DNA from: a plasmid
Length of the DNA stretch: 64,000 nucleotides
Direction: 5' to 3' (one strand)
Sequence record: NZ_CP041325.1
The position numbers and the translations under genes were made by a program. Below, in pieces: positions 1 through 64,000 of this stretch. The notes under the pieces were generated by a model. It was given only the letters and a program-made list of their open reading frames with translations. It did no database searches and was not told the DNA's origin. Numbering within the stretch: the first letter of the stretch is position 1; the number at the start of each line of letters is the position of its first letter.

Positions 1-1676
1 ACGCTTTCTGCAGCTTCATCGGGTGAAGGCCGCTGACAAATAGGTAACAGTCGTTTCGGGAAATGCTGGCCAAGTCCCCTTCTGGAATCAAGGAACGTTT
101 GACATATTGTTCCGACTGACTCCGGCTGGCGCTTGATTTGCCGCTCATGAAGCCGCCGCTTTGGCTTGAAGAGCCGGTCTGGATTTTCGCGGTGGTTTCC
201 CCGGCAAGCTGCGAGAAGTACTTGATGGTTTCCATGTCTTTGCTTCGCAGGTACAACAACGTATCATGGTTGGACAAAATCGAGCGGGCCATTTCTTTTC
301 CGTAAATGGATTCAATCTGGCCATTGTCCTGCACAATGGTATTCATCGATAAGCCAAGTCCCCGGCAGGTAGCAAGGACCCTTCCGTACTTCTCGATTTT
401 TCCGATGTTCGCAAATTCATCCAACAAGAAGATGGTCGGGATTTTTAGTTTCCCTTTGTTTTCATCCGCCATCCTATAGAACTGGGAAATCAACTGATCA
501 AAGAACACCGAAGTCAACGCAGTGAAGGGATTCTCGTCCATCGGCAGCTTCACATATAGTATGCTTTTCTGCTTCTGGAATTCCCGGAAATTGAAATCGC
601 TTTTACGCGTCATGTCGCTGATTTTCTTCAACGTAAAAATGCTGACCTGTGAAGCGAAGGATGATGTAACACTCGCTCTCGTGTTGCCGCCAAGCGTCGT
701 CAATCCTTTCAGCAGTTCGTAAGCTGGATGCCCTTTTCCGAGCTCCTCATCCACCCATTCTCGGAAGGTTTCTTCATCAGGTGCCACCTTTTCATTAAAG
801 ACATCCAACACATCCTGCATGCTGGCACCCGGAATTTCCGTCTTGCAGTAAACGATCAAGCCGGCGAGCATCTTCTGTGCCCGTTCCATGAAGAAATCCT
901 CTTTCCCGTCTTTCGTCGAGTTCTTCGCAATGGTCACCGATACACTTTGGGCATCCTGATCATCGAATACATAATCAAGCAGGTTGTAGCCGTCTTGGTT
1001 GAAATTAATAAAGTCAATTTGAAAGACCTGATAGCCTTGCTCTCGCTTGATTGCGGCTGTCTGGTCGAAGAGTTCCCCCTTTGGATCGGTGACAATCAAC
1101 GTTTCCTCTTTGTTATTGAGCAGGTTTGGAATGACAAAGGACTGGCCTTTCCCACTACCACTGGATCCGACAATGTAGACGTTCCGGTTGTCGATTTCGG
1201 TTGACCGAGGAATGACAAGTACTTGTTTCTTTTCCGGTACACGGCCCACAATCAATCCGTTTTCCAAAGCACTTAAGGTCTTTTCCGGTTGAGAAGGATA
1301 AAACTTATTCTGCTTCGAAAAGTGTTTCGCATTGATTACTTCATGCGGTTGGGTGAAACGTGCCGACCCGTGAACACCGAAGTCATGCGCATCTTCGTAT
1401 CTTTCTTCAAATAATCGTATTTTTGATAGGAACCATCCGAGGAAGACAACACTCAGCACTCCGACCAACAGCTGCGTCTGACGGTCCGCTTGTTCCGTGA
1501 TAAAAGATAAGGTGCCGGATACATCCAGAAGGATGGCATTCAAGTCCCCTTTCTCGTTGATGAAACGTAGAAACCCCGTCAGCACATAGCCGACCAATAA
1601 AGAAAGGAGGACGGCAATGCCGATTTTTACTCCCGCCCCTTTTTGCAGTTTCTTTTTCGCCATGTTTGTTCACACC
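1..1676 (-). CDS. Type IV coupling protein (TraG/TraD/VirD4 family), partial; C-terminus runs past the window edge
   Basis: By-eye reverse-strand translation from an ATG near 1676 gives an N-terminal TM segment, Walker A 'VGSSGSGKGQSFVIPNLL' and Walker B-like 'IFLLDEFANIG'. Open frame to position 1, so it is missing from the ORF track. Confidence 0.65.
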
Positions 1677-1692
1677 TCTCTTTTTCGATTTT

Positions 1693-2908
1693 CTACAGCT
1701 CGATTTCCAGACCCAGGTGACGCCGCATTCGGGTATTCCGTCCTTTGCGGTTCAGCTTTGAAAGTTCCCCTGGATCTTTTTCATAACTGTTTGGATGTGC
1801 GGCCTGCCGGACCAAATTATCCAGTAATTCCGTACTTGCCTGGCCGCTCGGAAAATGTCCGGTTTGTTGCTGGTCGATAGTCAAGCGCTGATAGAATGAG
1901 CCGCTTTGCTGATTTCGATAATTTACAAAAGAAGCATGGCGTTTTCTCCTGTTCTTTCAAAGCGGCATGTAAACACACTTTGAAAGAAGGTTCTTTCTGG
2001 AAAGCCGCTTCTTTTGCGAAATGCTTTAATAAATCGGCTTTCATTTCAAGCGGCAGCGCCTCCGTTTTTTCGCAGCAAACGCTCTTTTGCATGAGGGAAT
2101 TTTTCCCGGGCAAGATCGTTCAACTGTTTATCGAAATGCATCGCTTTTTTCTTGATATCGCTCCACCAGCTTCTGCGCTGTATTGAGCTTCACCGATGTC
2201 TCATAAAGGGCGTCCAGGTCTTTGCCAACCTTCAGCAACTTTTTCTTTTTCATTTCCTAATTTGTTTCGGACGAGTGACTGAATCCGGATGCTGTCACTT
2301 ACCTTCTCCGCTTGGCTGCATACCTTTTTCAGTTCGTGCAGCTGCAATCGATGATTCATTTCATGAGACGGTGGAACCCGGTGCCATTCTCCGTTTTTCA
2401 TCGCTTCAAGGAGTTCCGCTTTGAAGTCGGCAGTCCGATCATTGTATCCATAGCGGTCTTCGATATCCGGATACAGTTCATTGAACGCATTGTGCACTAT
2501 TAAGCTCTGTACCCGGAAGCTTCGTTCCAAATGAGCGGTGACGGTTTTATTGGTTTGCTTTTTCTTTTTCCGCCGCTTCGGCAAGCTTTTCAAACGTCTC
2601 TAAACGTTCAGTAAAGACGGTTAAGAAACCTTTGACGGGAAATCCTTGGTCTTTCACAGTGGCAACGTTTCGGTTCTGGTAAGCGCTGTGAGTTGCGTTC
2701 AAAATGGCGTGCATGACGTCAGTTTTCACTTGCTTAGGTTCCAACGTGCGCTCTTCCCAGCGATAGAGTCCTTCCAGCTGTTTATGAACTGCCTGGAACG
2801 TCACATTCTCCTTTTAAGCGGCCCTCCATAAAGCGCATGCTCTTTTGATAATCCGTGTCCAGATGCTGAGTTACTTCCACAGAATGGCGATGAAGAATGG
2901 ACTGAACA
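1693..2908 (-). other. Relaxase C-terminal extension or small ORFs spread over at least 4 frames (unresolved)
   Basis: Overlapping minus-strand ORFs (2782..3333, 2547..2804, 2201..2593, 1817..2113, 1693..1884) fill the gap between the relaxase domain and the T4CP gene. Total span ~690 aa, the size of Nes-like relaxases. Confidence 0.35.
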
Positions 2909-3760
2909 TCAACTGATTTCTGCTTTTCCGTAAGGAAGGAAATCTTCTGATTGAGCTGTTTGATTTCGGCGTTGGTCTTCCGGATTTCCTGGTTCAATTG
3001 GTGGTAAAAGGTCTTCGCTTCCAGTCCTTTTTTTCTCCATTCGTTTGACATACTGGTATTCGTTTCGTTCCAATCGGACTTCCGGTATCCGGTCCAGCCC
3101 CTGCTCTTCAAAGGAAAGCGCAGAAACGGTTTTCTTGATGCCGTGTTCCTTAAAAGTCTGGTTGATGGCTTCGGCATAATCGAGCCGCCATTGGACGAGG
3201 GTTTCCCGTTCATTCCAATTTGTCGAAGAAACCGTTTGGAAAACTTTTTCACCAGTATCGTTTCGGAGGATCTCACCGTCTTGGTCGTATTCATATTGGC
3301 GGACTTTCTTGTTCCCCCAGCTGCCGTCTTCATTGAACGGACGGACAGTCAACAAAATATGCGCATGGGGATTATGTGCTTTGTCCCGGTGAATGGAGAC
3401 ATCCGCTACCATGCCGGCATCGACAAATTCATTTTGAACGAACCGCTGAACAAGTTTGTGCTGCTGATCCGCGGTCAATTCAATTGGCAAAGCGATAAGC
3501 ACTTCACGGGCCAACTGAGCATTCCAGGCTTTCTCTACCTTTTCCACTTCGTTCCACAGTTTTTCACGGTTGAGTGTCCATTCAGGTGCATGGTCAGGCT
3601 TGAGGATGAAAGAGACCGGAGCCACTTCCCTCTTCCGGAAGCTTTTCATCTCTTCGTCCCTCTCGGAATACAGCTCTTCTCCGCTCCGGTAACTGGCACT
3701 GGCCACAGCGGATTGATTTTTTTTGCTGATGATGTTGGCTTGCAGTCGGAAATAGCTCAC
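2909..3760 (-). CDS. MobA/MobL (MobQ) family relaxase, N-terminal relaxase domain
   Basis: 283-aa ORF with a catalytic Tyr region 'ASASYRSGE' and histidine triad 'NPHAHILLTVRPF'. The C-terminal coiled-coil continuation sits in another frame (2782..3333), so a frameshift lies near 3060. Confidence 0.85.
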   Translation of the reverse strand: MSYFRLQANIISKKNQSAVASASYRSGEELYSERDEEMKSFRKREVAPVSFILKPDHAPEWTLNREKLWNEVEKVEKAWNAQLAREVLIALPIELTADQQHKLVQRFVQNEFVDAGMVADVSIHRDKAHNPHAHILLTVRPFNEDGSWGNKKVRQYEYDQDGEILRNDTGEKVFQTVSSTNWNERETLVQWRLDYAEAINQTFKEHGIKKTVSALSFEEQGLDRIPEVRLERNEYQYVKRMEKKRTGSEDLLPPIEPGNPEDQRRNQTAQSEDFLPYGKAEIS

Positions 3761-6040: not shown

Positions 6041-6620
6041 TCACTCTACAACCAGATGGAAACGCTCAGTCTCTTGCAGAAAGTCTTCCCTGGTAAGCTG
6101 TTGGCCTGAAATATTTTGCCGATAAGAAGTGATAGTCCCGTCATGCGTGACAATATAGATTTTCTTGCGTTGAAAGCTCCGGCAAAAATCAATGAAATCT
6201 TCGATCAGTAGGTTAAATTCATTATCAGGTAGAACATTAATGCCTGTTGACCATAACGAAGAAGCAAGATTTGGGACAGGAACAAAAGAAGGGAATTCAT
6301 CTTGAACTCTTTCTAAATCAAGCAATTCATCACATGGCAATGTTTTTGCAGCCAATCGTGTAGGGGAATATACGGGGCGCTGCCAATGGATGCACCACTT
6401 TATTGCACTCTATGTTTTCACTCCAGATCGAGGCGGTTTGGAGGGTTCTTAAAGTTGGACTAACAATTAAAATGTCTTCCCGAGTTAACGGAAGAGTGGA
6501 TTTTAAATTTTCCGCCTGCAGCCTCCCTTGTACGGTTAACGAAGGATGACCCAATTGCAAACTTTCCGGTAAATTCGTTGTATGTTCGCCTTGTCCATGA
6601 CGAATAAAAATCAATTCCAC
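6041..6620 (-). CDS. Histidine phosphatase family protein (phosphoglycerate mutase-like), frameshifted
   Basis: N-terminal 'MELIFIRHGQGEHT' RHG motif. Two overlapping frames (6330..6620 and 6041..6355). Confidence 0.6.
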
Positions 6621-6698: not shown

Positions 6699-6709
6699 TA
6701 AAGATTTTT

Positions 6710-7692: not shown

Positions 7693-8094
7693 TTAGCAGG
7701 ATTTTATGGACTGTAGAGCACGAATAGCACTTGTTGCATGCTCTCCCCAATGCATTTTAAGACCGAATTTCCAGTGCCATACCGCTTCTAGTTCATGACC
7801 GTGCTCATATAAAATTAACCCTTTCTTAATCTCGCTGTATATATCTGTAATATCGTCCTCAAGACAACCTTTTACCGGTGTTGTATCGCAATAAGGATTG
7901 AATATCTCCAGGTATACGTTATAGCTTTTAAATTCTACTTTTGGCAGCGGAAACTTCAAATCGATTGAATGTTCTTCTTTAGGTTCTACTTCTGGTAGCT
8001 CTAGTGCTTTTGCGTATAGTTGAGAAAGGCTTTTTAAAAGTTTGCTCAAATTCTCCTTCTCTTCAAAAAGAAATGTGTGAATCGATAAAGTCAC
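7693..8094 (-). CDS. Hypothetical protein
   Basis: 133-aa ORF. Confidence 0.4.
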   Translation of the reverse strand: MTLSIHTFLFEEKENLSKLLKSLSQLYAKALELPEVEPKEEHSIDLKFPLPKVEFKSYNVYLEIFNPYCDTTPVKGCLEDDITDIYSEIKKGLILYEHGHELEAVWHWKFGLKMHWGEHATSAIRALQSIKSC

Positions 8095-8563
8095 AATAAG
8101 TCGTAGCAGTAGTTACAAATGCTCTCACTTCTTTACTTCGCATCCCCTACTCCCCTTTCTTTCAAAAAGACGGCAGTTCTTTTTTAATCGATATTTAATC
8201 TCCTATCACGAATACCTTTCTCATGTTTATTAATTCATTGTAAGAAATAATCCCCTACTGCTCCTTTTTTTAATTCAATGATGAGCCAATCTTCTACTGT
8301 ATTTAGCTGTAAAAGAGATAAATGTTCTTCCGCTTCCTCTTTGTTGTGAAACAACTTTTCCTCGTTTTCTTCCATCAAAACAACACCGTTGGAAGATCTA
8401 ATTATGTAACGCATACCTTCCCCCCTTTAGATTGTCTTATCTTAATGAATAAGTCTTAAAAGCAGTAATGGGCTTTAGGGTAATTATGTATTTGAATGAC
8501 AATCAAACTCTATAATCTTTAGCCCCTAAACTTGTAAACATGATTTAAAAACTATTTTACATT

Positions 8564-10730: not shown

Positions 10731-10740
10731 ATGAGCAATC

Positions 10741-11150
10741 TATTAAACAAGAATAGCAAAAGAAGTTGTTGGAGCGCGGCCCGCAGATTTCCCCTGCCAA
10801 TACCTTTAAAATTGAAGATGTGAAACCTGCTGCAGAAGAAGCCCGCCCCCAAGAGATTGAAAAGAAAAAAAGAAAAAAACGCCAGAAAAGAAAGTTACGA
10901 GTGTACGCGTGAAGAAATCAACCCGTGATCGATTAAATGCTTTGGTAAGTTTAAACAAGGCAGAAAACATCGATGAAATGATCGAAATTATGATTGATGA
11001 GTATTTTTCGGTTCATGTGACAAAAGATGAAAAAAAGCAGTTCGACATAGTCATGGATTTATACAAATCGAAAAAAGTAAATGAAAGTCCTTGGTTCCTG
11101 AATAGAACTGAGGATTTTTTAATTGGATTAAAAACGGCATGCAAGCATGC
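10741..11150 (+). CDS. Putative small centromere-binding partner (ParB/ParG-like), frameshifted
   Basis: An ATG overlaps the parA stop (TAAATG). A basic, K/R-rich protein is recovered only after correcting two frame changes, one in the run 'aaaaaaagaaaaaaac'. The ORF-track product 10909..11340 is its C-terminus run on into the iterons. Confidence 0.35.
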
Positions 11151-11480: not shown

Positions 11481-11721
11481 TTTATAAAGCGCCCCGAAAC
11501 CCTATTGTATCAACGTTTTTTCTCTTCTATACTTTAAAACTAACTAGGAAAAGGTTCAGTTTTAGGGAGGGGGGAGACAGTGGTGGAAGTGAAAAGAGTA
11601 CTGGAATCGATTTTGCATGATGGTATTTCGATGTATAAAAAGATCGGCTCTGCTGCACCGCTGCCGCAGCTTTTAAAAGCACAAAAAACCTCCCTAAAAA
11701 AGTAAACAAGGGGCAATCTGC

Positions 11722-13093
11722 TTGGTCAGATCCAAAGAGCACTTATCGACCTCAGAAGGAGTTCGCGGCTATATTGTCACTTCCATGGAAACTCTCTTGG
11801 AGGATTCTTTTGGCATTTCTCACTGGAATCCTAATGTAGCGAACTACTTAAGGTATTCTGATAAAAAAAGACGGCACATCAAGGGATTGGAAGAGAAGAA
11901 CCTGCAACAAATCAACACCTTCGTCGTTGACATTGATTCCAAAAAGCAGCCCTATACAGAAATCCTGACTGCCGCCCTTGATCACAGCATCGGCATACCC
12001 ACTTTAGTCTTGGAAACACCAAAAGGTTTTCAGGCTTATTTTGTGTTGGAGAAACCGTTGTTCATCAGCAATCAAAACGATTATCGCGGTTTGAAAGTGG
12101 CTAAACGCATTTCAGAAAACATCAAACGCAGCTTGGCGGAAGTTTTGCAGGGAGTGGACATCTCCTGCAACGACTTCGGCTTTTTCCGCATGCCTCAAAA
12201 AAGACAACATCCGCTGGTTCTCAGAAGAAATGGTCTACGACTTCGGCAGTTTGATTGCTTGGTCCAAACGCCAGGATGATAACCGGGGTCGCGGGTTATT
12301 TGTGGTGCCTGGAAAAGAAGCGCCGCAGGATCCGACACAGTCCGAATGGTTCCGGGAATTGTTGGCGACTCGTCACGTAAAAGGGGGCGAGGGGCAGATT
12401 GGCCGGGACAATCTGATGTACACGATTGCCTTAGCCTGTTTTAGTGCCGGGAAGGGGAGAGGGGAGGCTCTCGACTTACTTGATGAATACAATTCAGGAC
12501 TTCATGCACCGATGCGTCATAACGAGGTGGAGAAAATCGTCAGAAGCGCATATAAAGGACGTTTCAAAGGCGCACATCAGGAATACATCCGTGAACTATT
12601 GGAAAGCTGGACGAACAAGAAGGATCTGGTCATCGAAAATTCTTTTGGTGGCTGGTACAAGTTCAAGAAAGAACGGAAGGACCGGAAGCGAAGCCATTAT
12701 GAAGAATGGGAAGAGGATCTGCTTGCCTATATCCAACAGGCCACTAGTTTGGAGCAACCAGTAAAATGGACCACACAGAAAGCAATCTGTGAAGAACTCG
12801 GAATGGCCAAAAGCACGTTCAACGAAGTGATCCGCAAATCCAATCGGATTCTGATCAAACGAAAAGGAAAAGGCTGCAGAGCACAGACCGGATTGACATC
12901 GGTGGCTGTGCTTCTTCAGTGTGCCCTTGCTTACAATCAAACACATCGTGCAGCATACTACGAAACGATCCGCTTGATGAACACAGAGCATGAAAACCAG
13001 GAAGCACTGCGAGAGCTTGATAACCTCCTGGACCTACACGCATTTGAAGTAAAACAGCAAAGGATGAATGGTAAAATTTTCAATTCTTCCTAA
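11722..13093 (+). CDS. Plasmid replication initiator with a PriCT_1 (primase C-terminal) domain, frameshifted
   Basis: N-terminal 'TFVVDIDSKK...GFQAYFVLEKP' replicase-like region. 'GRDNLMYTIALACFSAGKGRGEALDLLDEYNSG' matches PriCT_1. The two ORFs overlap at 12230..12279. Confidence 0.7.
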
Positions 13094-15241: not shown

Positions 15242-15605
15242 ATGCGTTTAGATTCCTATACCGAACGCCAGGAGCGTTTGCGTGAGCGCGGGAAGGTGGA
15301 ACTTCCACTCAATATCGATACGAAAAAAGTACTTGTATGGCAATATCTCTTTCCAGGATGTCTTCATTGTTTCGCCATTCTTGGTGTTTGGGGCCATCAT
15401 CTCTTATTTTCTGTACAAAGCAGGGCATCTTAATCAGCAATTGTTATTGATTTCCTTTATTCCGGCGATGATTGTTACGGTATTTCAGTTAAACAAGCAC
15501 CCCATCCGGAAGAATTTATCGCTTCTGCAGTACAAAGTGATTTGGAAGCTGCGGGCTAAGCGGCGGAATAAGGAATTTCATTACGCGAAAGGAGCATTGC
15601 CGATG
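15242..15605 (+). CDS. TcpE-like small membrane conjugation protein, frameshifted
   Basis: N-terminus in frame 15242 ('...GKVELPLNIDTKKVLVWQY'). Two-TM body in frame 15282 ('FIVSPFLVFGAIISYFLY...LLLISFIPAMIVTVF'). Confidence 0.45.
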
Positions 15606-18093: not shown

Positions 18094-18165
18094 GTTAGAA
18101 GTGCAGCTGAATGAAGTGACCGAAAAGCTGTGGTTTGAGCAGAAGAGCATTAACGATATCACCAT

Positions 18166-43971: not shown

Positions 43972-44109
43972 GCAACAAATGACCATCACTGCTGCTGGTA
44001 TTATTGCAGGAGATGCAATATATAGTTTTATGAACTCAATTCTAAAAGCTGGAAAATAATAAGCTTCTGGTTACTAGTTTATTATTTAAGTTTAATCTAT
44101 ATAAAAAAT

Positions 44110-46655: not shown

Positions 46656-46952
46656 GAAACTTGTTCTAAGAGAATTAAAAGAAGACGTTATACATATTCT
46701 TTATTAGGAATTATTGAGCGTTAATTCTAGAAGGTGCAATAATGCTTCAATATGGATATAAAAGACGGACGGAATAGTTAGAGCAAATGACAAAGTTTTC
46801 TATACAGAAGAGAATTTTTCGTGTTCAAACGTGACGTTTTAGTAGCTTAAACATGTAATATACCTATCAAAAAACACAAAAACGGCTCATTGTAAACTTT
46901 TCTTTCTTTTCATTACGATAATGTTAGTTACAACAAAAAGGAGAGATTGGGA

Positions 46953-47279
46953 TGGATTACGAATTGGAATTACCGGAAGAGTTTGAAGGAATGGAATTGC
47001 TGCAGACGTTAATCAGTCCAGCAAAAGTCAGATACGGGAATTATGATTCTTGGTGAGAATTATGCGGAGGGAGTTGAACGGCCGACTGTGCGGATTTACC
47101 TAATCAGTATCGGAAAAGATGAATGGAATATCGAAGGAGAACTTCAGGCGTTTACATTTCCAAGTTTCGGCAGCGCGAAGCGGTTTGTCGAGGATTTGCC
47201 AAGTATGTCGGCCATCGATTTGTTGCTGCTTATGAACGGGCATCAAGCTACCCATCCTAGTAAACAGATTATGCAATGA
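46953..47279 (+). CDS. Hypothetical protein, frameshifted near 47045
   Basis: 'MDYELELPEEFEGMELLQTL...' continues into the 47043..47279 frame. Confidence 0.3.
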
Positions 47280-49787: not shown

Positions 49788-49802
49788 GCCGGAGGGAATT
49801 TA

Positions 49803-51006
49803 ATGTTATTAAAGATTGATAGTTCATTAGTTGATTATTTAAAAGATAATTCCTCAAAGCCCAATTTAATAAATAACGAAGTTCAGGCTTTAAATAATCT
49901 CTCTATAGCACACAGGGACAAAAAACATATTTTATTTGGATCTTTAGATGTAGTAGAATTTTTAAAAGATTTTAAACCCTTAGATGATACTGCGCTAGGA
50001 ATTTTTAGCAATTTATTTAAAAAGTTTACTTTCATGGGAATATATGAAGAAATGTTTGATAATCAAATATTAATTAAAAGTAGAGAACATAAGTTTTTAA
50101 AGAAGTTTGTTAAAGAGAAAGTAATATTTGAAATTCCTATAACTGATTTTTTTAGATATAGAGAGTATTAGTAGAACTGCACTAATTGGAGAAGACAGTA
50201 CTGACTGTGAATTTTATGAAGGATTAGCAAAACAGTATATTACAGAAAATTATGGGATTTCTGCTATTAATTTAAACTTTCACCATGTGAATGGAGGGGG
50301 AGTAAATACTTGGAAATCCTTGCGTTATTACAGTGAAAATAAAAAAATCTCACTTACTATAACTGATAGTGATAAGCGCTACCCAACTGGTAACGTAGGA
50401 GAGACTTTAAGAAAATTGAGGACTGAATATAATAAACATAAAAATAATACGATAACAGATTTAGTGGAGTTAAAAGTAAGAGAAAAAGAAAATTTAATTC
50501 CTCCTTCAGTTTATTTGTATTGCTGCAACAGTTCTGATAAAAGTAGATTGGAAAACTTCATGTTATTAGAGGATTCTAATAAGCATTCCGAAAAATTATT
50601 TTATTTAGATTATAAAGAAGGGTTAAACGTTAAGAGCTATAAACGAGATTCTCAATTGCAAGGATATATAGAAGAAATGGTGAAAGATTTTCCGCACTTA
50701 GCCACTTGTAGTTTGGAAGATATAGATTCCTTATCTGACGATTATCGTATTATTGAAGGTATAAGTATGAATGTTTCAGATTATTTTAGTGTAGGAGTTT
50801 TTTACGAAGGTTTAGAAAAAGAATTAGAAGATAAATTAATGATAGAAAAAATACCAGCAGAAGTTATAGATGATTTGCGTAATAGTATAGACAAAAAAAA
50901 TAAAATGTTTAGACATATGCCAGAAAGCTTTCAAGTTCATTTGGAGGAAATTTGCAAAAAGCTTATTGATTGGGGATGTGCTAATAGTTCTTTTATTGCG
51001 ACCTAA
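49803..51006 (+). CDS. DUF4435/Toprim-like (OLD-family nuclease-like) protein, AriB-like; one gene split by a T7-run indel at ~50165
   Basis: Removing one T from 'gattttttta' joins the 122-aa and 239-aa ORFs. The junction then reads 'ALIGEDSTDCEFYEGL' (Toprim Glu motif), followed by 'LTITDSDKRYP' (DxD motif). Confidence 0.5.
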
Positions 51007-51364
51007 ATACTTTGAAAAAGCATTTAAAAATATTTATGAAAGTATTACTTAAATTGTAAATTGATTTGTCAAGTGTATAGTGATTACGTGAATTTTTTTC
51101 ATAAAAGATGGTTTATAAGAGGCCGAAAAGAAGATTCCAATTTCTTCTCGGCTACTTCTAATTTAGTCTCAAAATTTATATCAAAAGCACTCTATTATAA
51201 TATTGCTTAAGAATGATCCAGCTAAGAAAAGGAAGGACATCGATTCTTATAACGAATCTAATACAGTATCTATATTTAAGTGTTTATACAATAAAGTTAT
51301 TTTTTGCTTAGTCTCGGCTGCGTACTTACTCGAACGAACCCTGGAATCGCAAGCTCGTCCAACT

Positions 51365-54300
51365 TTATCGTAAAAGTATGGTGTGAGTTACTTTATCTAT
51401 GATTTGCTGTGAAATTTCTCGATCGAAATCTGCTATCTCTGGTAATATAGCATTAATATTTGCTAAATCTATTTCTTCAAAGTTCGATATTGCTTCAGCA
51501 ATTATAGTTGATTTCTTGAGTAAAAATAATCTCAATGAATTGGGGTCTTCATTTATTAAGTGGAAAATAAGAATATGCAGAGCTTGCCATTCTAATCGAT
51601 CTTTTGAGTAAGAATCTCTATGCATAGGAATATCAAAATCATTTTCTATATAATACTTAACTAGCGAAGGAGAAAAAGCGAACTGATAAAGGTTTATTTT
51701 CTCAAATTTCTCTTTATTACTGTAAAGAAAATTATCAATTATTCGAACGTGCTTTTTATCAAGATACAAAAAGAGGAACTCAAGTATTTCACTATGAAAG
51801 CTCGCCCAAACATTATGCTCATCAAATTTAGTTTTTATTCGGGTTAAATCTATAGCTTTAATAAGCTCAGAGTATTTACCTGAATCAAACTTTCTCAGAA
51901 TCTTATAGAAACTAGATAAGTTGTGCCAACTGCGAAAGGGAACTGTTACTAATTCTTCAGCCAATTGCTTGGGTTCAATAAAACTAATGATTTTTTCACC
52001 AATGACTCTTTGATCTTTTTTAATATAATCTCTTTTTTCGCTTAAAGAGTTGAATCCCATTACTATTGCTAAAAATTTGAAATCTAGCATATGCCAAGCG
52101 TTAATTGAATGTTGTTTAAATGCATTGCGGAAATTGTCAGACATCACGTGAAATAATTTAATGCCATAAAGTCTGTCGTAGTTAAAAATGTTCCCAATGA
52201 AATCAACTAAGTCTTCGAAATCTAACTGGTTATTTTCCAATAAAAGTAGTTCTGTTTCAATCTGGTTTTTGTCTAAAAGCTTGAAAAATTCCTTTGCTCT
52301 TTCAATTGATAAAAGAAGACCTAACCTAGAAATAAAATAACTCCAGTGATATAAATCTTCTTTCTTTAAATTAGAAAATCTATTAGCAATTTCAGTTATA
52401 TTTAAGTTGTTACCAAAATCTTTTGCTTTAATTCTATCCGAATTATACATATCATTTATTATAGTGCCCAATGAATAAGCCGTTATACTATTTACATTTT
52501 CAATTTCTTTATGAATTGTTGAAGAAAAATGATATATATCAAAATACTCGGTTTTACTAAACTTTGTAAAAGTATTGGCGAAGTATAAAGCATGAGTAGT
52601 GAGAGTTTTTTTCTTCTGACGACAAGCTTTCTTCAATGATATGGTAAACTTCGTCTTTCGAAATAATATAAGGCATTCTAAAATGCAGTTCACTAGTGAA
52701 AATTGTATTCATAAACCATACTTTTCCTAAAAGCGGATTATTTAGAGATATCATTTCATTGTGTACTATTTGCTCATATTTTTTTCTATTTTCTGTGTCA
52801 TTATCGAATATGAACTTCAATTGTCTTTTAGCTGCTTCATAGTGAATCATTCTAAGGAAGAAACCATCAATTAACCTTTTCTTTCGTAGTGCTTTTAAAT
52901 TTTTATTTAGCCATTCTTCATCTTCAGAAAAGTATTCTTTTACGTTCTGTATTAACCAATTTTCATTTACTGTATTATCTTTGGTTATTATCTGTTTTAG
53001 AGCCAGTAAAAAAATTAATCTTTGTGAGTTGTCTAGATCTTTTGATTTAAAGTAGTTATCTTTAGTAGTTTTCCACCCGCCTCTAATTACATAATTAAAG
53101 GTCCAAAGATTGTCCTCTTTCGAGGCGGCATCTATTCTTTGATCGAACGATTCTTGCAGAAAGTAATTTCCTAAGTCTCCATCTATTTTTGAAATAATAT
53201 GTGAAACTGTTTTTTCATTTTTTCTGTAAAATTCACTAATGCAAGCGATATTCTCATTATTAGAAATTGAAACTGTAGCGGAATCAACTTCTATATCTTC
53301 AGTAACTGTCAAAATGATCTTTTGATAATTACTGCTTTTTTCTTGTAAGATTTGCAAAATCGAACTGGGTAGAATATGTCCATCATCAATGATATATATT
53401 GCTTTAGGATTGCTGGGTAAAGAAAAATTATCGATATCTGTAAAATCATTGGTTTTGAAACGTAAAACTTCATATCCATGTTTTAAAAAATGAAAAGCGA
53501 TTTGGTAACAAGAAATGGATTTACCAGATCCGGGTTTTCCTTGAAGAATAACAAAGTTATTCAACTCTAAAACTTTAATAGCTTTTTTGAACTTGGGGCA
53601 TTTCGGGACAAACGCTCACGTCTTGAGGGGTAAGTTTGTACCCTAAAACGGCTCTTCCAATACTATCATTTTGATTTTTAAAATTTAAGTACTCCCATTT
53701 ATTATAATTATTCTCGTCTATCAAATTTTCAACTAATTCCTCAAAAAATTCCGACGCCGATAAATTAATCACTCTTTCATCAGTTGAAAATGGGGAAACT
53801 CTATAGACTTTCCATTTATCTTCTAAAGGCGAAATCAATTCTTCTACAATTTTTGCATCGCTTTCTGAATAGCCAACGATAACTAGAGTTCTAGGTCTTT
53901 CCATTGCTAGTAGATTAATATGTTTTTGTTCTTCGTCACTTATATTTCCTGGAGAGTTTGGAAGTACCCACTCAGAATTTAAATTTAAGACATCTCCGTG
54001 TGGTTTGATCAAATTTATTTTACTGTCGTTTATTCGGGTACCATATAATTCAGACCATGACATTTCTAATAAGCTATCCCAATTAAAAGAGACAATTAGC
54101 TCAAAAAATTTTCATGAACTAATTTAGCTATATTATTATGTATACGAGGGGCAACGGTTATTTTACTGTTAACCTTGCTAAACTTGCTTTTAAATAAACT
54201 TACCGCATCTTCATTCTGTTCAATATATGAAAACGCCCTTTTGATTTTTTACAAAATCTTCTCCTATTCTACTCTTTGTACTTCCAATGCCTTTAAACTT

Positions 54301-54465
54301 CTGATCGATACTAGGAAAAGAACTTACTACCTCCCAAACAATAGGAGCAAGCTGGTTACCTAGTGGCATTCCAGGTTCAAAGGAAACTCCCGCCCCAATA
54401 ACTACGACAGCATTATTAACTCTTATTTCATTAATTATTGAGGTTAAATTATTAACAGACTTCAT
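51365..54465 (-). CDS. SIR2-like NADase domain fused to a NACHT/STAND-like P-loop NTPase and an α-helical C-terminal domain (~1030 aa after correcting homopolymer frameshifts); bNACHT/Avs5-like candidate
   Basis: SIR2 motifs: 'VVVIGAGVSFEPGMPLGNQL' (54220..54465), 'IVSFNWDSLLE', 'LIKPHGD' and 'LVIVGYSESD' (53575..54063). NTPase: 'ILQGKPGSGKS', 'IYIIDDGHIL', 'KIILTVTED' (52557..53564). Helical 442-aa tail (51365..52693). Junctions lie at T6, A6 and A7 runs. A single nt change at each gives a continuous ORF. Confidence 0.55.
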
Positions 54466-54563: not shown

Positions 54564-55182
54564 TTATAAAGGAGTTGCTGTCTCTGCTTCGATTTCTCTC
54601 ACTAATTTATAAAAACTAGTTTTTTTAACTCCAGTTTCTTGCATGGCTTCAACTGCTGTTAATTCTCCAGATTTCCATTTTCTATAAACCTCTTTAAATT
54701 CTTCTGAAACAAGAACAGGAGTCCTGCCAAACTGAATGCCGTTTTTCAACGCTAAGTCGATTCCTTCGCGTTGCCGTTTTCGTATGCGTTCCCGTTCTTC
54801 TTCTGCCATCCAGGAAAGAATCTGCAAAACCAAATCTGCAATGAATGTTCCCATACTATCTTTATACTGCGTCGTATCGAGTAACGGCATATCCAGCACC
54901 ACGATATCCGCTTCGATTTTTTTTCGTCAGGTCATTCCATTCCTGGAGGATCTCTTCTTTGTTCCGGCCAAACCGATCCAGCGAGTGGATATATAAAATG
55001 TCGCCTTTCCGGATAATCCGTTTGAGCAGCTGATAGTTCGCTCGCTCGAAATTCTTACCACTTTGCTTGTCCAAATAAATATCCCGTTCAGTGATGCCCA
55101 TTTTTCTCATTGCTTCCAATTGACGGCCTTCGTTTTGATCTTTGCTGCTGACACGTATGTAGCCAAATTTGCGATGTTCCAT
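54564..55182 (-). CDS. Serine recombinase (resolvase/invertase family), one A8-run frameshift near 54895
   Basis: N-terminal 'GYIRVSSKDQNEGRQL...LYIHSLDRFGRN' catalytic domain. C-terminal HTH 'TAVEAMQETGVKKTSFYKLVRE'. Confidence 0.8.
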
Positions 55183-57371: not shown

Positions 57372-57930
57372 TCAGCAGCTAGCTTCATATAGGTCCGTTT
57401 CGGGTTTGGGGCAATAGGTTGCTTCGCTGGGCGGAAGATTTAAAGCAGTGGTGAAACGCTGGATCGGTCCAGGCCAATCAGTTTTCCAGATTTCCGAGTA
57501 GTGGTGGTTCGTATACGCAGCGATGACGTTTCGCCAAAATTTCTGTGCAGGAAGATTGGTTTCCAACTCCGCCACTTCCCATGTTCCAGGATAGAGATCA
57601 AACAAATACCAGGCAGCCTGTTTGCCGATGCCTTCCTTCCGGTATTTTCTCAGGATGAAAAATTCGCAGATTTTGTAATAGGAGGAGGTCTGGAGCTCCG
57701 CCGAAGTGATTTCTCGTACCAAGGCGAATCCTGCCAGTTTTCCGTCCACTTTGATCAGAAATGGGAAGTGGCCAGGAACCGCCCAGTAATAGTCCAGATA
57801 CTTGTATCCATATGAGCCTTCTTAGTTTACATCTTCCGATTCGAATTCAGTGAACTCGTACTGGTACAACTCCAGCAAGTTGCGCAAAACATTCCGTTGT
57901 TCGATCGTTGGCTGCAAGATTTCTAGTTTC
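57372..57930 (-). CDS. GNAT-family N-acetyltransferase, frameshifted near 57750
   Basis: 'ICEFFILRKYRKEGIGKQAAWYLF' acetyl-CoA binding motif. N-terminus in another frame. Confidence 0.6.
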
Positions 57931-58327
57931 ATCATACGTCCTCCGTTCTAGTTATATACTCTTTTTTCTTTTTTACTACTGGTAGACTCGTTTGCCATTC
58001 CGGTTCTCAAAGAAAAATAGATACTTTTTTCTAGAAAACCTTCCCCGATGTTCGTTCAGTGAATGAAGTACGGCCAGCGGTAACGCCGGCAAAATCGCTC
58101 CCTGTATGCGAATTTTATTGTTCTCTTTTATTAAAGAAAGTTCAAGCTGGTCAGACCCAAAGAGATTCCAGTGCTTAAATATATCCCCACTATAAAGAAA
58201 GAAAGTGAAATCCAGATGAAAAAACAAGAAAAGGGGAAGAAATGCTTTATTTTCTTCCCCTTTTCTTATTTTTTTTTTACTAGTATCCCTGCTATTTTAA
58301 CTAAGAAATGCCGAAAAAGTGATCCAC

Positions 58328-58990
58328 TCAAGGCTTAAAAGCTCTGTATGCCCTCAATGTTCCGACAATCGTCGAAAACTGCCTTGTCTCTTCAATGGCC
58401 ACAAAACCGGTTTCCTTAAGCAAATCCGGGATGATGCCTTGAACATGCGGTGAAGTGGTTTCAAATCCGTCCATGAATTGGACAGGGAGAAAGGCCACGC
58501 GCATCAGCGCGTTTTGTGGCTTCTCGAAATCCAGGACATGGAATTGGCCGCCCGTTTTAAGGACCCGGCAAACTTCTTTAAACGTTTCCAGCTTCTTCTC
58601 CACAGTCAGATGATGGATGAACAGACTGGTGAAGACATGATGAAACCGGTTACTAGAAAAAGGGAGCTGTTCCGAAAAGCCTTCCACAAAGTGGATCGAT
58701 TCAGCACGGTTTTTCTTTCATCTTCTTTTTCGCAATAGCCAGGATTTCGGGATCGGCATCGAGTCCCATTACATGCACGCCGGAGTGGGATTGCTGAAGC
58801 AAAAGGGCGAGCGTTCCAGTACCACACGCCAAGTCCATTGTCAGCTCGCCCGGTTGAAGGGCCGCCTGGTTGACCAGATGTATTTTCATCTTTTTTTTCT
58901 TGCATGCCCCGTTCGATTAGCGGGTCATAAAAACGAGTCAGCCAACGGTACTTGAGTGCCGGTATATAAGCTCTTTTCGGAGTTTCCTTC
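58328..58990 (-). CDS. Class I SAM-dependent methyltransferase, frameshifted
   Basis: 'MDLACGTGTLALLL' motif I (58701..58889 frame). C-terminal portion in 58328..58687. Confidence 0.65.
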
Positions 58991-59004
58991 ATAAAAATCG
59001 TCTC

Positions 59005-59736: not shown

Positions 59737-61209
59737 CTATTCGGATTCAATTACAAATTCAATTGTCTCCCGGTCGGAAATCGTCGGAAGTTGATAGGAT
59801 TGCTGGTAGTTTTCATGGCCTTTGCCGGTGATTACAACCCAATCGCCCGTCTTGCTTTCGTTGATTGCTTTTTGAATGGCGACTGTCCGATCCGGAATTA
59901 TGCTTCCCTTTTCATTACCGTAAGTCTCATTTAGTCGTTTTAAGTCGTCCACCATCTCGATTTGCGACACCGTGTTCAGGTCATCCAATGTCAAATGTAC
60001 CGGTCACTCCATTCTGCGCTTATCGACAGCATGGCGCTTCGCTTGCTAGGGTCCCGGTCCCCACGAAAGCCAAAAACATGGATAATCCGTTTGGCGCCCT
60101 GTAATTTTACGGTTTCCAAGCAGTAAGAAACGGCATCCGGTGTATGGGCATAGTCCACCACGACGGTTGAGCCATTGGTTAGTTTGGAAACTTCAAAACG
60201 TCCTTCGACCCCCCTTGAAATGTGGAACGGAATCCAAAAGCTTTTCTTTGGGAATCCCCAGAAGCCGTGAAGTTCCATACGCCATCAAGGTGTTGTACAT
60301 ATTGTGCATGCCGTTCATCGCTGAGTCCATTTGGTACGTTTCGTTCCTTTCCTCCACCAGCATCGTGGAGGTCGTTGGGGTAAAGTAGACAACGCGCAGA
60401 TCGCAGTCAGAGGACCTGCCAATCGCATACACCGATTTCCCTTCCCTTTGCAGGGTTTCCGTAAGCTTTCGCCCCCACACATTATCCGCATTCACCACAG
60501 CGGTTCCGTTCGCTTTCAACTGATGGAACATCAAAAGCTTCGTCTGGAAGTACTCCGCCATGGAGCCGTGGTAATCCAGGTGCTCCGGATGAAGATTGGT
60601 AAACAAGCTGTAATCAAATGTAATACCTGCCAAACGGTGTTGGGCCAATCCGTGAGAAGAGACCTCCATGATGATGACCTCATCGCGGCTGAGGGATAAT
60701 AGCTTGTGCAAAGCCAGCGAACTGGGCGTGGTGTTGGCGCTTTTCGTCTTCTGACCATTGATCACATTTTGGATGGTCCCGATGACAGCACAAGTCATCC
60801 CGTTGTTTTCTAGAAAATGCTGCAGCATGTAACTTGTGGTCGTTTTCCCATTGGTTCCTGTTATGCCAATCATTACTTTCTCTTTGGACGGATGCCCATA
60901 GAAATTCCTCGCCATTATGCCAAGGGCTTTGCGGCTATTCTCCACTTGAAGATAAGGGATGGATAGGCCGGTGATTTCCTGTTCTCCCACGACCACTAAA
61001 GTGCCTTTTTCAATTGCTTGTTCAATATACTGATGGCCATCACTTTTAAAGCCTGCAATGGCGACAAAGACGAATCCTGCCTCGACATCTCTGGAATTAT
61101 CGGCAATGCCTTGGATATCTAACTCTAACGTGCGGGAATTCAACCGATTAATCAAATCAATTTCCTGCAAAAGTTGCCTTATTTTCATTGATTGGGTAAC
61201 CTCTCTCAA
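59737..61209 (-). CDS. murE: UDP-N-acetylmuramoyl-tripeptide ligase MurE, two frameshifts
   Basis: 'IGITGTNGKTTT' P-loop, 'DNVWG', and a C-terminal 'VVVDYAHTPDA...ITGKGHE' spread over three frames. Confidence 0.8.
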
Positions 61210-62789: not shown

Positions 62790-63029
62790 TGCGATCTCCT
62801 TCTTTCTACATTTGTCTTTAGATACTTTACCCCTTAACTTTGCATATTGTGTGCAGGAACCATGACATTTTCTTGTGCAAATGGTCTGGGCAGTGGATTA
62901 TGGCAAGTTCGTGAACCACTAAGGGAAGTTCTCTATTCTATAGAAGAAACTGCACAAAAATCGAAACTTATTTAGTAAACTGGTGGAGAAGAACATTTTC
63001 TAGAAAGAAAGAGCTGGAGGAATAGAGAA

Positions 63030-63900
63030 ATGAAGATGAAAAGAAAAGCGATCGGTGCACTGTTGGCGGTAATTATGTTGGCCGGCTGCAGCGGAGAGGA
63101 TACGGGCTCTTTGAGGCCCCGTACGATGGAGAAATGAATCATGTCCATGGAATGGGCTATGCGGGAAATGACAAAGGCTTGTATTTTGCGTCACACATTG
63201 GATTGAAAATCTACCGGGACGGTGAGTGGTTCGAAACAACGGATAATTTCCATGATTACATGGGGTTCAATGCGACAGATGACGGTTTTATTACGTCTGG
63301 CCACCCGAGCGCAGATTCTGAGTTACCCAATCCGCTTGGAATTCAGCGCAGTGTGGACGGTGGAGAAACCCTTGAAGAAATTGCGTTCCAGGGAGAGACG
63401 GATTTTCATGCCATGGCTGTCGGTTACAATAGCCATGACCTCTTTTTGATTAATCCGGCTCCCAATTCCTTGCTGGAAGCAGGCGTTTATAGAAGCACGA
63501 AAAAGGGGAGTCGTGGCAACCTGTAAAAGCTGAAGGACTGGAAGGCGAAGTGACAGGACTGGCTCTTCACCCGACAGATTCAGCTTTTGTGGCGGCGGCT
63601 ACTTCGACAGGCATTTATTTCTCGGAAGATGCAGGAGAATCGTTCCAAGCCCTTACGGCTGAAGGAGAAAGAGGGACCGCGGTGCATTTCACCGAGCAAG
63701 GGCTGTACTTCGGGAGCTTCGGGACAGCGGCGGCTTTGATGCAGTATACTGGTGAAAATGAGGCGTTGAAAAGACTGAACATACCGGCTCTTCCGGAAGA
63801 CGGCATCGCTTTTATCGCCGTAAATCCGGCGAATGACCAGGAACTGGCTTTTTTACACGCTGCGGGGCGATGCCTACTTCTCTGAAGACGGTACCCAAAG
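63030..63900 (+). CDS. Lipoprotein with BNR/Ycf48-like β-propeller repeats, frameshifted
   Basis: 'MKMKRKAIGALLAVIMLAGCSG' lipobox in frame 63030. Body in ORFs 63134..63526 and 63550..63885. Confidence 0.5.
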
Positions 63901-64000
63901 TTGGAAACCGCTGCTGCAAAACAGCAAAACCCAATAAAATACGTAAACTGGAAAGGGAAATATGTGAATTGAAACTAATGACTCACAGGAAGGGACAGCA

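Follow-up and report, generated by a model that had tools for sequence, protein, structure and literature searches.

In mismatch-repair mutants slippage depends on run length and gives ±1 changes, and in some organisms A/T runs of 6-8 bases can allow the polymerase to slip, for instance at the poly(A) tracts of insect endosymbionts. In older nanopore data deletions are commoner than insertions. For long-read-only bacterial assemblies, errors in homopolymer length are named as the commonest residual error in two reports (PMC8812927, PMC9262707). The stretch of 64,000 bp analysed here (the window) belongs to the 157,579-bp plasmid unnamed1 of Planococcus glaciei strain 46093, and its proteins exactly match GenBank entries QDY46973-QDY47017 (P. 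glaciei plasmid). Gene callers and the GenBank annotation read its broken genes as 2-8 overlapping fragments. According to the data presented below, these frame breaks are almost certainly consensus errors in the deposited assembly and not mutations of the organism.

Results

At least 77 length differences were registered in the window (1.2 per kb, Table 1). Sixty of them came from DNA alignment with independent assemblies, which covered 45,595 bp, and the other 17 from frameshift-aware protein alignment in the parts without DNA cover. The total is a lower bound; intergenic errors were scorable only within the 45.6 kb with independent DNA. Fifty-four indels are spread over 26 genes, all of which return to full length once the 77 sites are corrected, and 23 are intergenic. 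In 56 of the 77 cases the window carries extra bases. At least 74 sites are miscounted homopolymers; at 15743 a single non-repeated G is lost, and a C run at 16739 has an excess of two bases. At the intergenic sites 35247, 35288 and 35295 the window probably differs genuinely from a comparator strain with 98.8% identity.

Frame breaks at A/T homopolymers had been noticed in the initial annotation, and they proved to be real and far beyond chance: runs of at least 6 bases make up only 1.7% of the sequence, yet hold 33 of the 60 DNA-supported sites (binomial P = 1.5e-42), while runs of at least 3 bases (21% of the sequence) hold 55 of them (P = 8e-32). All five junctions quoted there as examples (35338-35343, 35591-35598, 50147-50153, 54917-54924 and 52606-52612) are true ones. 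The statement that junctions lie in A/T runs of 6 or more was accurate for 31 of the 54 in-gene sites (39 of 77 overall), but not for the 11 sites in G/C runs, the many in A/T runs of 3-5 bases and the single G.

Table 1. Affected genes and sites (+ or - with a number, bases gained or lost in the window; i, intact at the given length in the named comparator)
Feature	Coordinates	Strand	Length, aa	Sites	Basis
MobQ relaxase	1693..3760	-	~686	+1 each, plus strand: T4 1942-1945, T6 2065-2070, T6 2145-2150, T5 2240-2244, T5 2565-2569, T4 2812-2815, T7 3028-3034	L001, L071
Histidine-phosphatase-like	6041..6620	-	192	G4 6363-6366 (+1)	L083
DUF5063	7693..8143	-	149	A5 8065-8069 (+1)	P0095 (QKX52854.1)
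DUF5388, downstream of ParA	10731..11080	+	115	A4 10758-10761 (-1), A7 10865-10871 (+1), A7 10873-10879 (+1), A6 11071-11076 (+1)	L075 (i)
Ribosome-binding region directly upstream of PriCT_1 (intergenic)				G6 11569-11574 (+1)	
Primase C-terminal (PriCT_1)	11577..13093	+	503	A6 11696-11701 (+1), A6 12197-12202 (+1)	L075 (i)
RepA_N	13838-14773			none, intact	
TraC-like/TrsD	15242..16277	+	344	A6 15323-15328 (+1), G 15743 (-1), A4 16004-16007 (+1)	L075 (i)
VirB4-like (DUF87/P-loop_TraG) ATPase, 5 frames	16290..18169	+	624	C4 16739-16742 (+2), A6 17400-17405 (+1), T7 17671-17677 (+1), A4 18043-18046 (+1)	L075 (i)
Conjugation-cluster gene	21139..21886	+	248	T6 21626-21631 (+1)	L075 (i), L081 (i)
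Conjugation-cluster gene	21914..23465	+	516	A6 22938-22943 (+1)	L075, L081
ABC transporter permease	25141..27202	+	686	T7 25824-25830 (+1)	L085, L086, L087 (all i); QKX52871.1
ABC transporter ATPase	27199..28066	+	288	T5 27824-27828 (+1)	L085 (i), L086 (i)
ABC-operon gene	28063..28708	+	214	T7 28465-28471 (+1)	L085, L086; P0124 (QKX52873.1)
NCS1 (Transp_cyt_pur) permease	31624..32963	-	445	A5 32435-32439 (+1), T7 32939-32945 (+1)	L072/L085 (i)
TetR regulator	33011..33602	-	196	A6 33480-33485 (+1)	L072/L085 (i)
M24 peptidase (Creatinase_N + Peptidase_M24)	35320..36407	+	361	A6 35338-35343 (+1), A6 35363-35368 (+1), A8 35591-35598 (+1), G3 35917-35919 (-1)	L072/L085 (i)
Class-V aminotransferase	36422..37619	+	398	A6 37610-37615 (+1)	L072
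IclR regulator	41680..42445	+	254	A5 41840-41844 (+1)	L072, L073, L074 (i)
OPT oligopeptide transporter	42473..44059	+	528	A3 42886-42888 (-1), A7 43948-43954 (+1)	L072 (i)
Named 'geranylgeranyl pyrophosphate synthase' in source	46952..47279	+	108	A4 47023-47026 (+1)	P0159 (QKX52887.1)
AAA_15 ATPase (NsnB/AriA-like)	48186..49803	+	538	T8 49778-49785 (+1)	P0029 (QKX52888.1)
Partner gene	49803..51006	+	400	T7 50147-50153 (+1)	P0165 (QKX52889.1)
SIR2-nSTAND3 NTPase	51247..54465	-	1071	A4 51372-51375 (+1), T7 52606-52612 (+1), T6 53583-53588 (+1), A6 54103-54108 (-1), T6 54245-54250 (+1)	P0168 (QKX52890.1), P0170
Serine recombinase	54564..55182	-	205	T8 54917-54924 (+1)	P. maritimus
GNAT acetyltransferase	57372..57938	-	187	in-frame TAA; substitution at 57824	L077 (i)
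Class I SAM methyltransferase	58328..58992	-	220	T5 58710-58714 (+1), T8 58891-58898 (+1)	L077, L078, L079, L080 (i)
MurE-family ligase, plasmid-borne	59737..61188	-	483	A3 59993-59995 (-1), C6 60209-60214 (+1)	three to four assemblies (i)
F510_1955-family glycosylhydrolase / Sortilin-Vps10-like lipoprotein ('Ycf48-like' initially)	63030..63937	+	302	T3 63110-63112 (-1), A5 63500-63504 (-1), T6 63849-63854 (+1)	L077 (i), L078 (i)
Intergenic homopolymers				C6 6628-6633 (+1), T6 6705-6710 (-1), T5 7485-7489 (+1), A6 13619-13624 (-1), G6 23466-23471 (+1), A4 23965-23968 (-1), A6 32984-32989 (+1), A3 33882-33884 (-1), T6 33922-33927 (+1), A4 34124-34127 (-1), A4 34160-34163 (-1), T7 37702-37708 (-2), G4 56489-56492 (-1), A5 56679-56683 (-1), T6 57962-57967 (+1), T6 57969-57974 (+1), T7 61446-61452 (+1), A5 62956-62960 (-1)	
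Intergenic run of two bases				CC 14777-14778 (+1)	
Intergenic, non-homopolymer				35247, 35288, 35295	

About a dozen public assemblies served as comparators: Logan runs SRR31173159/164/175/176, SRR36359048, SRR29026057/061, SRR5240351, ERR13710822, SRR13007714, SRR32051687 and SRR14875195, and the ENA metagenome assembly ERZ27285383. From their contig naming (k141_...) and mutual agreement we infer that they derive from short accurate reads. At all 60 sites the comparators contradict the window, and wherever several cover a site they agree with each other; none sides with the window at any of the 60, which is the opposite of the outcome named in advance as refuting sequencing error, i.e. independent reads reproducing the window's run lengths. 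Within the covered parts all affected genes are called intact. As comparators stem from other samples or strains and not from strain 46093 sequenced again, a genuine strain-specific frameshift is formally conceivable at any single site. Six of them, with zero mismatches, together span 14,472 bp and show 0 substitutions against 18 homopolymer indels. L086 (ABC operon) has 0 mismatches over 4,262 bp and L078 (lipoprotein gene) 0 over 5,849 bp. At the histidine-phosphatase-like gene, which has a weak NCBIfam dPGM match, the 1,409-bp alignment with L083 (SRR31173176) contains 4 indels and no mismatch.

In the replication and conjugation region the comparator L075 comes from Logan run SRR31173175. 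The DUF5388 gene is probably the 'ParB-like' one of the initial annotation and the 248-aa gene, intact against the window in both comparators, its 'TcpE-like' one. The rep gene was listed there as broken, but RepA_N is intact, and it is the neighbouring primase-C gene, found by tblastn in two frames, that is disrupted. For the TraC-like gene a P. maritimus reference gives the same positions. The relaxase is read in 8 pieces and the SIR2-nSTAND3 gene in 6, and the range of 2-6 proposed earlier is thus exceeded. A near-identical independent assembly was looked for and not found for the relaxase, and its 7 sites rest on homologues with 65% identity: frameshift-aware alignment to P. maritimus (L001) and P. 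lenghuensis (L071) over aa 1-687 placed the same 7 '+1' events by both references, with no stop codons; at 2240/2246 and 2559/2565 adjacent equal runs make the affected run ambiguous. The recombinase, whose DNA homologues with 85-89% identity occur on many plasmids, matches that of P. maritimus at 177/200 residues with one '+1' event.

Among the transport and metabolic genes, the ABC permease is divided in GenBank between QDY46993.1 (270 aa) and QDY46994.1 (439 aa), both labelled 'hypothetical protein', while the sister assembly (HF394, strain CNCTC7660) has it in one piece of 686 aa. Its 149-aa DUF5063 and 214-aa ABC-operon proteins are 100% identical to the window translation, with a frame switch at 8066 in the former and two frames in the latter. 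Sites between 29.9 and 37.7 kb have one supporting contig (SRR31173164_993213, L072/L085), which is 98.7-98.8% identical to the window. The M24 peptidase and the OPT transporter each occupy three frames against Peribacillus homologues. The class-V aminotransferase looks intact; its indel alters the C-terminal residues, giving a 408-aa ORF. Three independent contigs agree for IclR, one of them (L073) 99.94% identical to the window, and four independent assemblies agree against the window for the methyltransferase. L077 and L078 are concordant for the lipoprotein gene, and three to four assemblies for the MurE-family ligase. The corrected ligase scores 439.5 bits with NCBIfam NF001126 MurE (cutoff 373); the earlier argument that essential murE is affected is weak, as this is a plasmid-borne copy whose essentiality is unproven.

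With frameshifts allowed, further proteins of the sister assembly equal the window translation at 1071/1071 (SIR2-nSTAND3, 5 frameshift events, all placed identically by the Logan homologue P0170), 400/400, 538/538 and 108/108 residues, the last three with one '+1' event each. The AAA_15 ATPase, for which PADLOC matches were found, looks intact, although its indel alters the C-terminal tail and introduces a premature stop, so that the window reads 534 aa. Its 400-aa partner, deposited as QDY47007.1 (122 aa) and QDY47008.1 (239 aa), has no match in PADLOC or NCBIfam, which leaves its initial 'AriB-like' label unsupported.

The GNAT gene, also listed initially as frameshifted, has no indel. A GAA codon in L077 is TAA in the window, one of only 3 mismatches between them over 8.7 kb, and the site is covered by this comparator only. 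The substitution does not fit the indel model, and the stop codon could be a genuine mutation.

The miscall rate climbs with the true length of A/T runs, from 0.15% at 3 bases and 1.8% at 4 to 10.8% at 5, 13.8% at 6 and 19% at 7. Of A/T runs of at least 5 bases, 23/216 were miscalled in coding and 13/72 in intergenic DNA, rates that are similar (P = 0.10); with runs of at least 4 bases included, coding sites are slightly under-represented (P = 0.036). Indels per gene agree with the prediction from homopolymer content (chi-square 44.1, 35 df, P = 0.14), and the indel pattern shows no sign of selection.

In NZ_CP041324, the small plasmid record from this genome assembly, one 3-kb stretch occurs twice, and the two copies disagree at ~20 homopolymers and at 1 mismatched base. 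Compared with the sister assembly, this record has 0 mismatches and 44 gap bases over 8.6 kb. The small record is over-circularised; the large one appears to contain two ~78.8 kb copies.

Discussion

Most probably, the lengths of runs of identical bases were miscounted by one at base-calling and consensus building, mostly with one base too many and sometimes with one too few. Each miscount inside a gene shifts its reading frame, and the gene is then reported as 2-8 overlapping fragments, making the broken genes an ordinary data-quality artefact. With ~1.2 errors per kb, an over-circularised small plasmid record and an apparently doubled large one, the pattern points to a long-read-only assembly that was polished poorly or not at all. 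The excess of insertions is unlike the pattern of older nanopore data.

Real frameshifts accumulating in the plasmid of strain 46093 and turning most of its genes into pseudogenes are very improbable. In the record as deposited the genes are truly out of frame, and the nonsense substitution in the GNAT gene is of the kind that real decay makes, but it is the only nonsense codon, and large deletions or IS insertions are absent. Decay is hardly compatible with the lack of substitutions beside 18 indels in 14.5 kb, with 100% amino acid identity of a 1071-aa gene across 5 frameshifts, or with per-run rates comparable between coding and intergenic DNA and per-gene counts that track homopolymer content. 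The genes are in frame in every other sample carrying the plasmid, and single-molecule biology cannot explain the discordant copies within the small plasmid record.

Still less probable is a hypermutable, mismatch-repair-deficient lineage. Replication slippage at mononucleotide runs in such a strain would likewise give run-length dependent ±1 changes; however, transitions would also be expected and none occurred over 14.5 kb, a density of 1.2 frameshifts per kb would leave most of a genome inactive, and coding DNA is not depleted of indels. The discordance of copies inside one record would be left unexplained, and the apparently identical plasmid of the sister assembly has intact versions.

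Programmed frameshifting, transcriptional slippage or phase variation, with the runs acting as functional slippery sites and the genes still expressed, has a negligible probability: many sites are indeed A/T runs of 6-8 bases, but many others are runs of 3-5 bases or G/C runs, intergenic runs are equally affected, the 26 genes hit are unrelated, represent all functional classes and suffer in proportion to homopolymer content, and all relatives and independent assemblies are in frame there. Just as negligible is the supposition that the miscalls sit in the other assemblies and the window is correct; the sister assembly does have errors of its own (one copy of its STAND NTPase has 786 aa and the other 1071 aa), but at every site they share, roughly twelve assemblies built from separate runs are concordant, their versions are full-length ORFs with complete Pfam domains, and the reading frame is kept at these positions in more distant homologues from P. 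maritimus, P. lenghuensis and Peribacillus.

Source record and fragmentation of its genes

Exact-sequence look-up showed the intact open reading frames (ORFs) of the window to be identical to proteins of a 157,579-bp plasmid contig from Planococcus glaciei (QDY46973–QDY47017, locus tags FK545_), and most of these ORFs are also identical to QKX528xx proteins of another record, 157,805 bp long (HF394_). Where the two disagree the window sides with FK545; the AAA ATPase, for instance, is 534 aa long in the window as against 538 aa in HF394. Judging by how PLSDB lists the small plasmids of both genomes, FK545 corresponds to strain 46093 (blood, Czech Republic) and HF394 to strain CNCTC7660, hereafter the sister assembly. 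Literature searches for papers on these two genomes (announcement, platform) found none, and the exact protein of hydantoinase A is present only in these two NCBI records. The G+C content of the window is 40.9%, and it contains 171 A/T runs of at least 6 bases. Its first 20 kb are about 77% identical in DNA to Planococcus conjugative plasmids, and PLSDB searches gave only Planococcus plasmids about 77% identical, which are informative on frames but not on run lengths; PLSDB has no entry for the source plasmid.

The frame breaks reported in the initial annotation are real, in that single genes do lie in several frames when compared with their Planococcus and Peribacillus homologues. Using tblastn with proteins of related Planococcus plasmids, the VirB4-like ATPase was found in five frames, the relaxase in at least four, TrsD in three and the primase in two, while Peribacillus homologues revealed the same scattering of the M24 peptidase, IclR, OPT and NCS1 genes. 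Nucleotide alignment with a P. maritimus plasmid presented the breaks as single-base length differences, mostly a surplus A or T in the window; some of these differences affected runs as short as 3–4 bases, and one affected a C run. Hydantoinase B homologues from a contig scan (Peribacillus, at most 88% identity) helped with frame maps only. An intrinsic scan for overlapping ORF pairs was dropped, since too many of its pairs were spurious and junctions located in short runs escaped it, and reference-guided comparison was used instead. Two groups of overlapping ORFs were rejected as split genes (see the table of coordinates).

Positions in the window of the features discussed
Feature	Position	Remark
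Covered by independent contigs	6127–7534; 10089–45594; 55320–64000	45,595 bp
Scored by protein alignment	1–6.1 kb; 7.5–10.1 kb; 45.6–55.3 kb	
Rejected split-gene candidate	3991-4224; 4187-4450	two separate genes in reference plasmids
Rejected split-gene candidate	4901-5203; 5131-5337; 5334-5606	each outer ORF is a complete protein, identical in both assemblies and Logan
Miscounted G run	11569-11574	directly upstream of primase gene, in GGGAGGGGGG
Miscounted G run	23466-23471	directly upstream of MazE-like gene, in AAGGGGGG
Catabolic island	28948-44059	in common with Peribacillus
Three intergenic differences	35247–35295	outside homopolymers
Defence island	48186-56094	low GC (G+C 28-36%)
ThsB-like TIR protein	55666-56091	in defence island
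GNAT gene	57372-57938 (-)	in-frame TAA via single substitution at 57824
MurE cluster	59737-63937	continues beyond the right end (Logan contig L077, 1-6700)

Comparison with independent DNA and proteins

Contigs assembled independently from other public runs (Logan), together with contig k141_4690 of an ENA metagenome assembly, served as comparators; several window proteins are present in them residue-for-residue. They represent other samples, not the isolate of strain 46093, and are 98.7–100% identical to the window. Their alignments contain 60 length differences, and at all 60 sites every covering contig contradicts the window and agrees with the other contigs, none sharing the window's length. 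Independent data reproducing the run lengths of the window had been named in advance as the observation that speaks against sequencing error; this comparison came out the opposite way, with 0 of 60 sites reproduced. Six comparators have no mismatch at all: over their union of 14,472 bp there are 0 substitutions, yet 18 single-base homopolymer indels relative to the window.

Gene calls on the independent contigs were all full length and contained complete Pfam domains. Intact there are Transp_cyt_pur (445 aa), TetR (196 aa), DUF1177 (312 aa), Peptidase_M24 (361 aa), Aminotran_5 (398 aa), IclR (254 aa), OPT (528 aa), the ABC permease (686 aa) and ABC ATPase (288 aa), PriCT_1 (503 aa), TraC-like (344 aa), P-loop_TraG (624 aa), the Mur ligase (483 aa), a methyltransferase (220 aa), an acetyltransferase (187 aa), a Sortilin-Vps10-like protein (302 aa) and proteins of 214, 248 and 516 aa.

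The remaining parts of the window, for which the comparison relied on proteins, were scored with a frameshift-tolerant protein-to-DNA aligner. The SIR2–nSTAND3 NTPase matched the sister-assembly protein in 1071 of 1071 residues across five frameshift events. One event each was registered in the 400-aa partner of the AAA_15 ATPase (400/400 residues identical to the sister-assembly protein), in this ATPase itself (538/538, the event being close to its end) and in a 108-aa protein (108/108); DUF5063 showed 100% identity to a full-length protein with one event, and the only event of the recombinase fell in an 8-base run. For the C-terminal 442 aa of the NTPase a word-indexed homologue search returned only the window's own fragment, and the full-length sister protein was obtained by cluster look-up. 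The relaxase aligned end to end (687 aa, 65% identity, 0 stop codons), two reference relaxases giving the same seven '+1' events; its sites rest on homologues of this identity because the only near-identical match found by a homologue search with its fragment was that fragment.

Census of length differences

The window contains no fewer than 77 length differences, a density of 1.2 per kb. It is one base too long at 56 sites and one base too short at 18, with single cases of +2, +3 and −2; 66 sites are in A/T and 11 in G/C runs, 54 lie inside 26 genes and 23 are intergenic. Once the indicated bases are deleted or added, all 26 genes return to the lengths seen elsewhere. Runs of at least 3 bases hold 72 of the 77 sites, and the 60 sites from the DNA comparison are enriched in runs of at least 6 bases (binomial P = 1.5e-42). 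The earlier statement that every junction traced lies in an A/T run of 6 or more is valid for the examples quoted with it, not generally: it describes 39 of all 77 sites and, within genes, 31 of 54. Three neighbouring intergenic differences outside homopolymers are probably real differences from a 98.8%-identical comparator strain. The two miscounted G runs of the table sit in Shine-Dalgarno-like sequences, and therefore predicted ribosome-binding sites are distorted as well as reading frames.

For A/T runs the rate of miscalls rose with true run length: 0.15%, 1.8%, 10.8%, 13.8% and 19% for 3, 4, 5, 6 and 7 bases, respectively. Runs of at least 5 bases were miscounted in 23 of 216 coding and 13 of 72 intergenic cases (P = 0.10), and for runs of at least 4 bases there was a mild coding deficit of miscounts (P = 0.036). 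Indel counts per gene fitted the prediction from homopolymer content (chi-square 44.1, 35 df, P = 0.14). Given the similar coding and intergenic rates and this per-gene fit, the differences show neither a mark of selection nor a preference for particular functions.

Duplicated copies inside the records

The small plasmid of the strain 46093 assembly (NZ_CP041324, 8,620 bp) is over-circularised, a 5.43-kb unit being present in it about 1.6 times. Between the two copies of the 3-kb stretch that occurs twice there are about 20 discordant homopolymers and one mismatch, and relative to the sister assembly the record has 0 mismatches and 44 gap bases. As the two copies are two readings of one molecule, their discordance is not biology. 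The small plasmid of the sister assembly (NZ_CP051178, 8,634 bp) likewise holds about 1.6 copies of the 5.43-kb unit, and both records are marked linear. As a result of these 1.6 unit copies the replication gene is annotated twice in each; it is fragmented in the former and intact (1,170 nt) in both copies of the latter.

For the 157-kb record the evidence is indirect: paired protein accessions of different lengths indicate that most of its genes are also present twice, with a different pattern of fragmentation in each copy. The AAA ATPase has 534 aa in one copy (QDY47006.1) and 159 aa in the other (QDY46925.1), and a 234-aa protein is intact in one and divided into 66 + 68 aa in the other. 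YdhK is likewise doubled (QDY46934.1 and QDY47017.1), and most window genes have two copies in the sister record as well, DUF305 (QKX52795.1 and QKX52897.1) among them. The 157-kb plasmid probably consists of two head-to-tail copies of a plasmid of about 78.8 kb, as an assembly artefact or as a true dimer.

Assembly error or biology

The frame breaks are an assembly error in the deposited sequence and not a property of the organism. The initial attribution of the breaks to sequencing indels can be held with high confidence, as five lines of evidence converge on it: indels free of substitutions, dependence on run length, no trace of selection, and the disagreement of copies both in the small plasmid and in the 157-kb record. 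From the resemblance to a published pattern we infer the platform: these would be long-read consensus errors. One study of long-read-only bacterial assemblies describes residual errors as 'most commonly homopolymer-length errors' (PMC8812927), and two others also describe the error pattern seen in the window (PMC9262707, PMC12007338). Shared with such assemblies are ±1 miscounts almost all in mononucleotide runs, at a rate growing with length and without substitutions, genes split into overlapping pieces named 'hypothetical proteins', and plasmid records that are over-circularised or duplicated. The window differs from them in its majority of insertions (56/77) and in the involvement of 3-4-base and G/C runs.

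Among the disrupted genes 26 of 27 are broken solely by ±1-2-base indels. The exception is the GNAT gene, which had been listed as frameshifted; in fact it has an in-frame TAA where the sole comparator reads GAA, and it is the only gene disruption in the window other than a homopolymer indel. A metagenome scan for this stop-codon site found nothing. Since substitution differences are very rare in the comparison, the TAA could be either a true nonsense mutation in strain 46093 or an uncommon error of substitution. Individual sites may be genuine because no comparator represents the same isolate. Even so limited a contribution of biology, a small minority of disruptions genuine in strain 46093 with GNAT GAA→TAA as the best candidate and perhaps a few single-comparator differences (98.7-99% identity), seems to us rather unlikely; if true, one or a few real strain-specific pseudogenes are hidden among about 70 artefacts.

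Genuine gene decay might be suspected from the many window genes out of frame and the one nonsense codon, which recall the pseudogene-rich replicons of recently host-restricted bacteria. Such replicons show a mixture of changes, with nonsense substitutions and non-repeat indels alongside deletions and IS insertions; their protein conservation is relaxed, and the decay is shared with close relatives. In the window, by contrast, proteins are 100% identical to their sister-assembly counterparts across the breaks, the sister-assembly proteins are full length, and the breaks are missing from every other sample, including the independent lineage data at all testable sites. Programmed or transcriptional slippage has a parallel in the frameshifts that insect endosymbionts carry in A/T homopolymers of otherwise conserved genes. 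The slippage-rescued poly(A) tracts of these bacteria, however, have about 9 or more bases, are found in reduced genomes of very high AT content and have been verified with accurate sequencing, whereas the runs of the window have 3-8 bases on a plasmid of 41% GC and independent data disagree with them. A search for a conserved out-of-frame state or slippery site found none: homologues of P. maritimus, P. lenghuensis and Peribacillus and the near-identical assemblies are in frame there. In phase-variable contingency loci the length of a homopolymer also sets the reading frame, but there the long tracts belong to a small set of specific genes for surface structures or restriction-modification, while in the window all gene classes and intergenic DNA are affected in proportion to homopolymer content. 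Together with a mismatch-repair mutator lineage, these alternatives predict substitutions, an out-of-frame state conserved in relatives, coding depletion or the involvement of particular genes only. None of this is seen, and none of the four accounts for the disagreement of copies inside one record. That the window is right and the comparators wrong is excluded, as the comparators are mutually consistent, their versions restore ORFs, and at the positions in question distant homologues also keep the frame.

Consequences for users of the record

The value of the finding is practical, not biological, and it serves as a warning only. About 1.2 indel errors per kb probably extend to the whole assembly of strain 46093. 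In the deposited annotation one 686-aa ABC permease appears as two 'hypothetical proteins' (QDY46993.1 and QDY46994.1) and one 400-aa protein as QDY47007.1 and QDY47008.1; such fragments are now in nr and UniRef and give rise to spurious protein clusters. Counts of pseudogenes, pan-genome analyses, calls of defence systems or conjugation modules and inference of 'gene decay' would be wrong if drawn from this record. The early caution about pseudogene calls in the window was justified, split 'hypothetical proteins' and absent-function inferences being equally unreliable. The corrected coordinates permit reconstruction of 26 genes, and the conjugation module, the hydantoinase/NCS1/M24 catabolic island and the defence island are to be treated as intact. 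Two gene assignments change as well: RepA_N, thought to be broken, is intact, the broken replication-related gene being primase-C, and the 'AriB-like' label is not supported for the 400-aa partner, which has no PADLOC or NCBIfam match, while the AAA_15 ATPase matches the NsnB and AriA models.

The low-GC defence island combines this ATPase (NsnB and AriA are its top PADLOC matches) and its partner with the 1071-aa SIR2-nSTAND3 NTPase, which has no PADLOC match, a serine recombinase and a ThsB-like TIR protein. The catabolic island consists of two hydantoinase/oxoprolinase sets, DUF917, the NCS1 permease, TetR, DUF1177, the M24 peptidase, a class-V aminotransferase, IclR and the OPT transporter. 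It is also found on contigs of several metagenome runs, and its presence in Peribacillus, with amino-acid identity of up to 88% for hydantoinase B, suggests horizontal transfer between Bacillales genera.

The Mur ligase had been described as an essential murE. Its family is upheld by the corrected protein, which scores 439.5 bits against the NCBIfam equivalog NF001126 (cutoff 373), while essentiality was overstated for a plasmid-borne gene. With its plasmid location and with YdhK/DUF1541, DUF305 and metal-resistance genes as neighbours, it probably represents an accessory copy. This meso-DAP-type MurE equivalog is clustered with the YdhK/DUF1541 and DUF305 genes, a secreted 234-aa protein, a methyltransferase and an F510_1955-family glycosylhydrolase, and a two-component system, a Csp (copper storage) protein and a P-type ATPase lie just outside the window. 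A cell-wall ligase paralogue in a metal-resistance island is unusual, and since the peptidoglycan of Planococcus is of the L-Lys type, a DAP-type MurE would be odd there.
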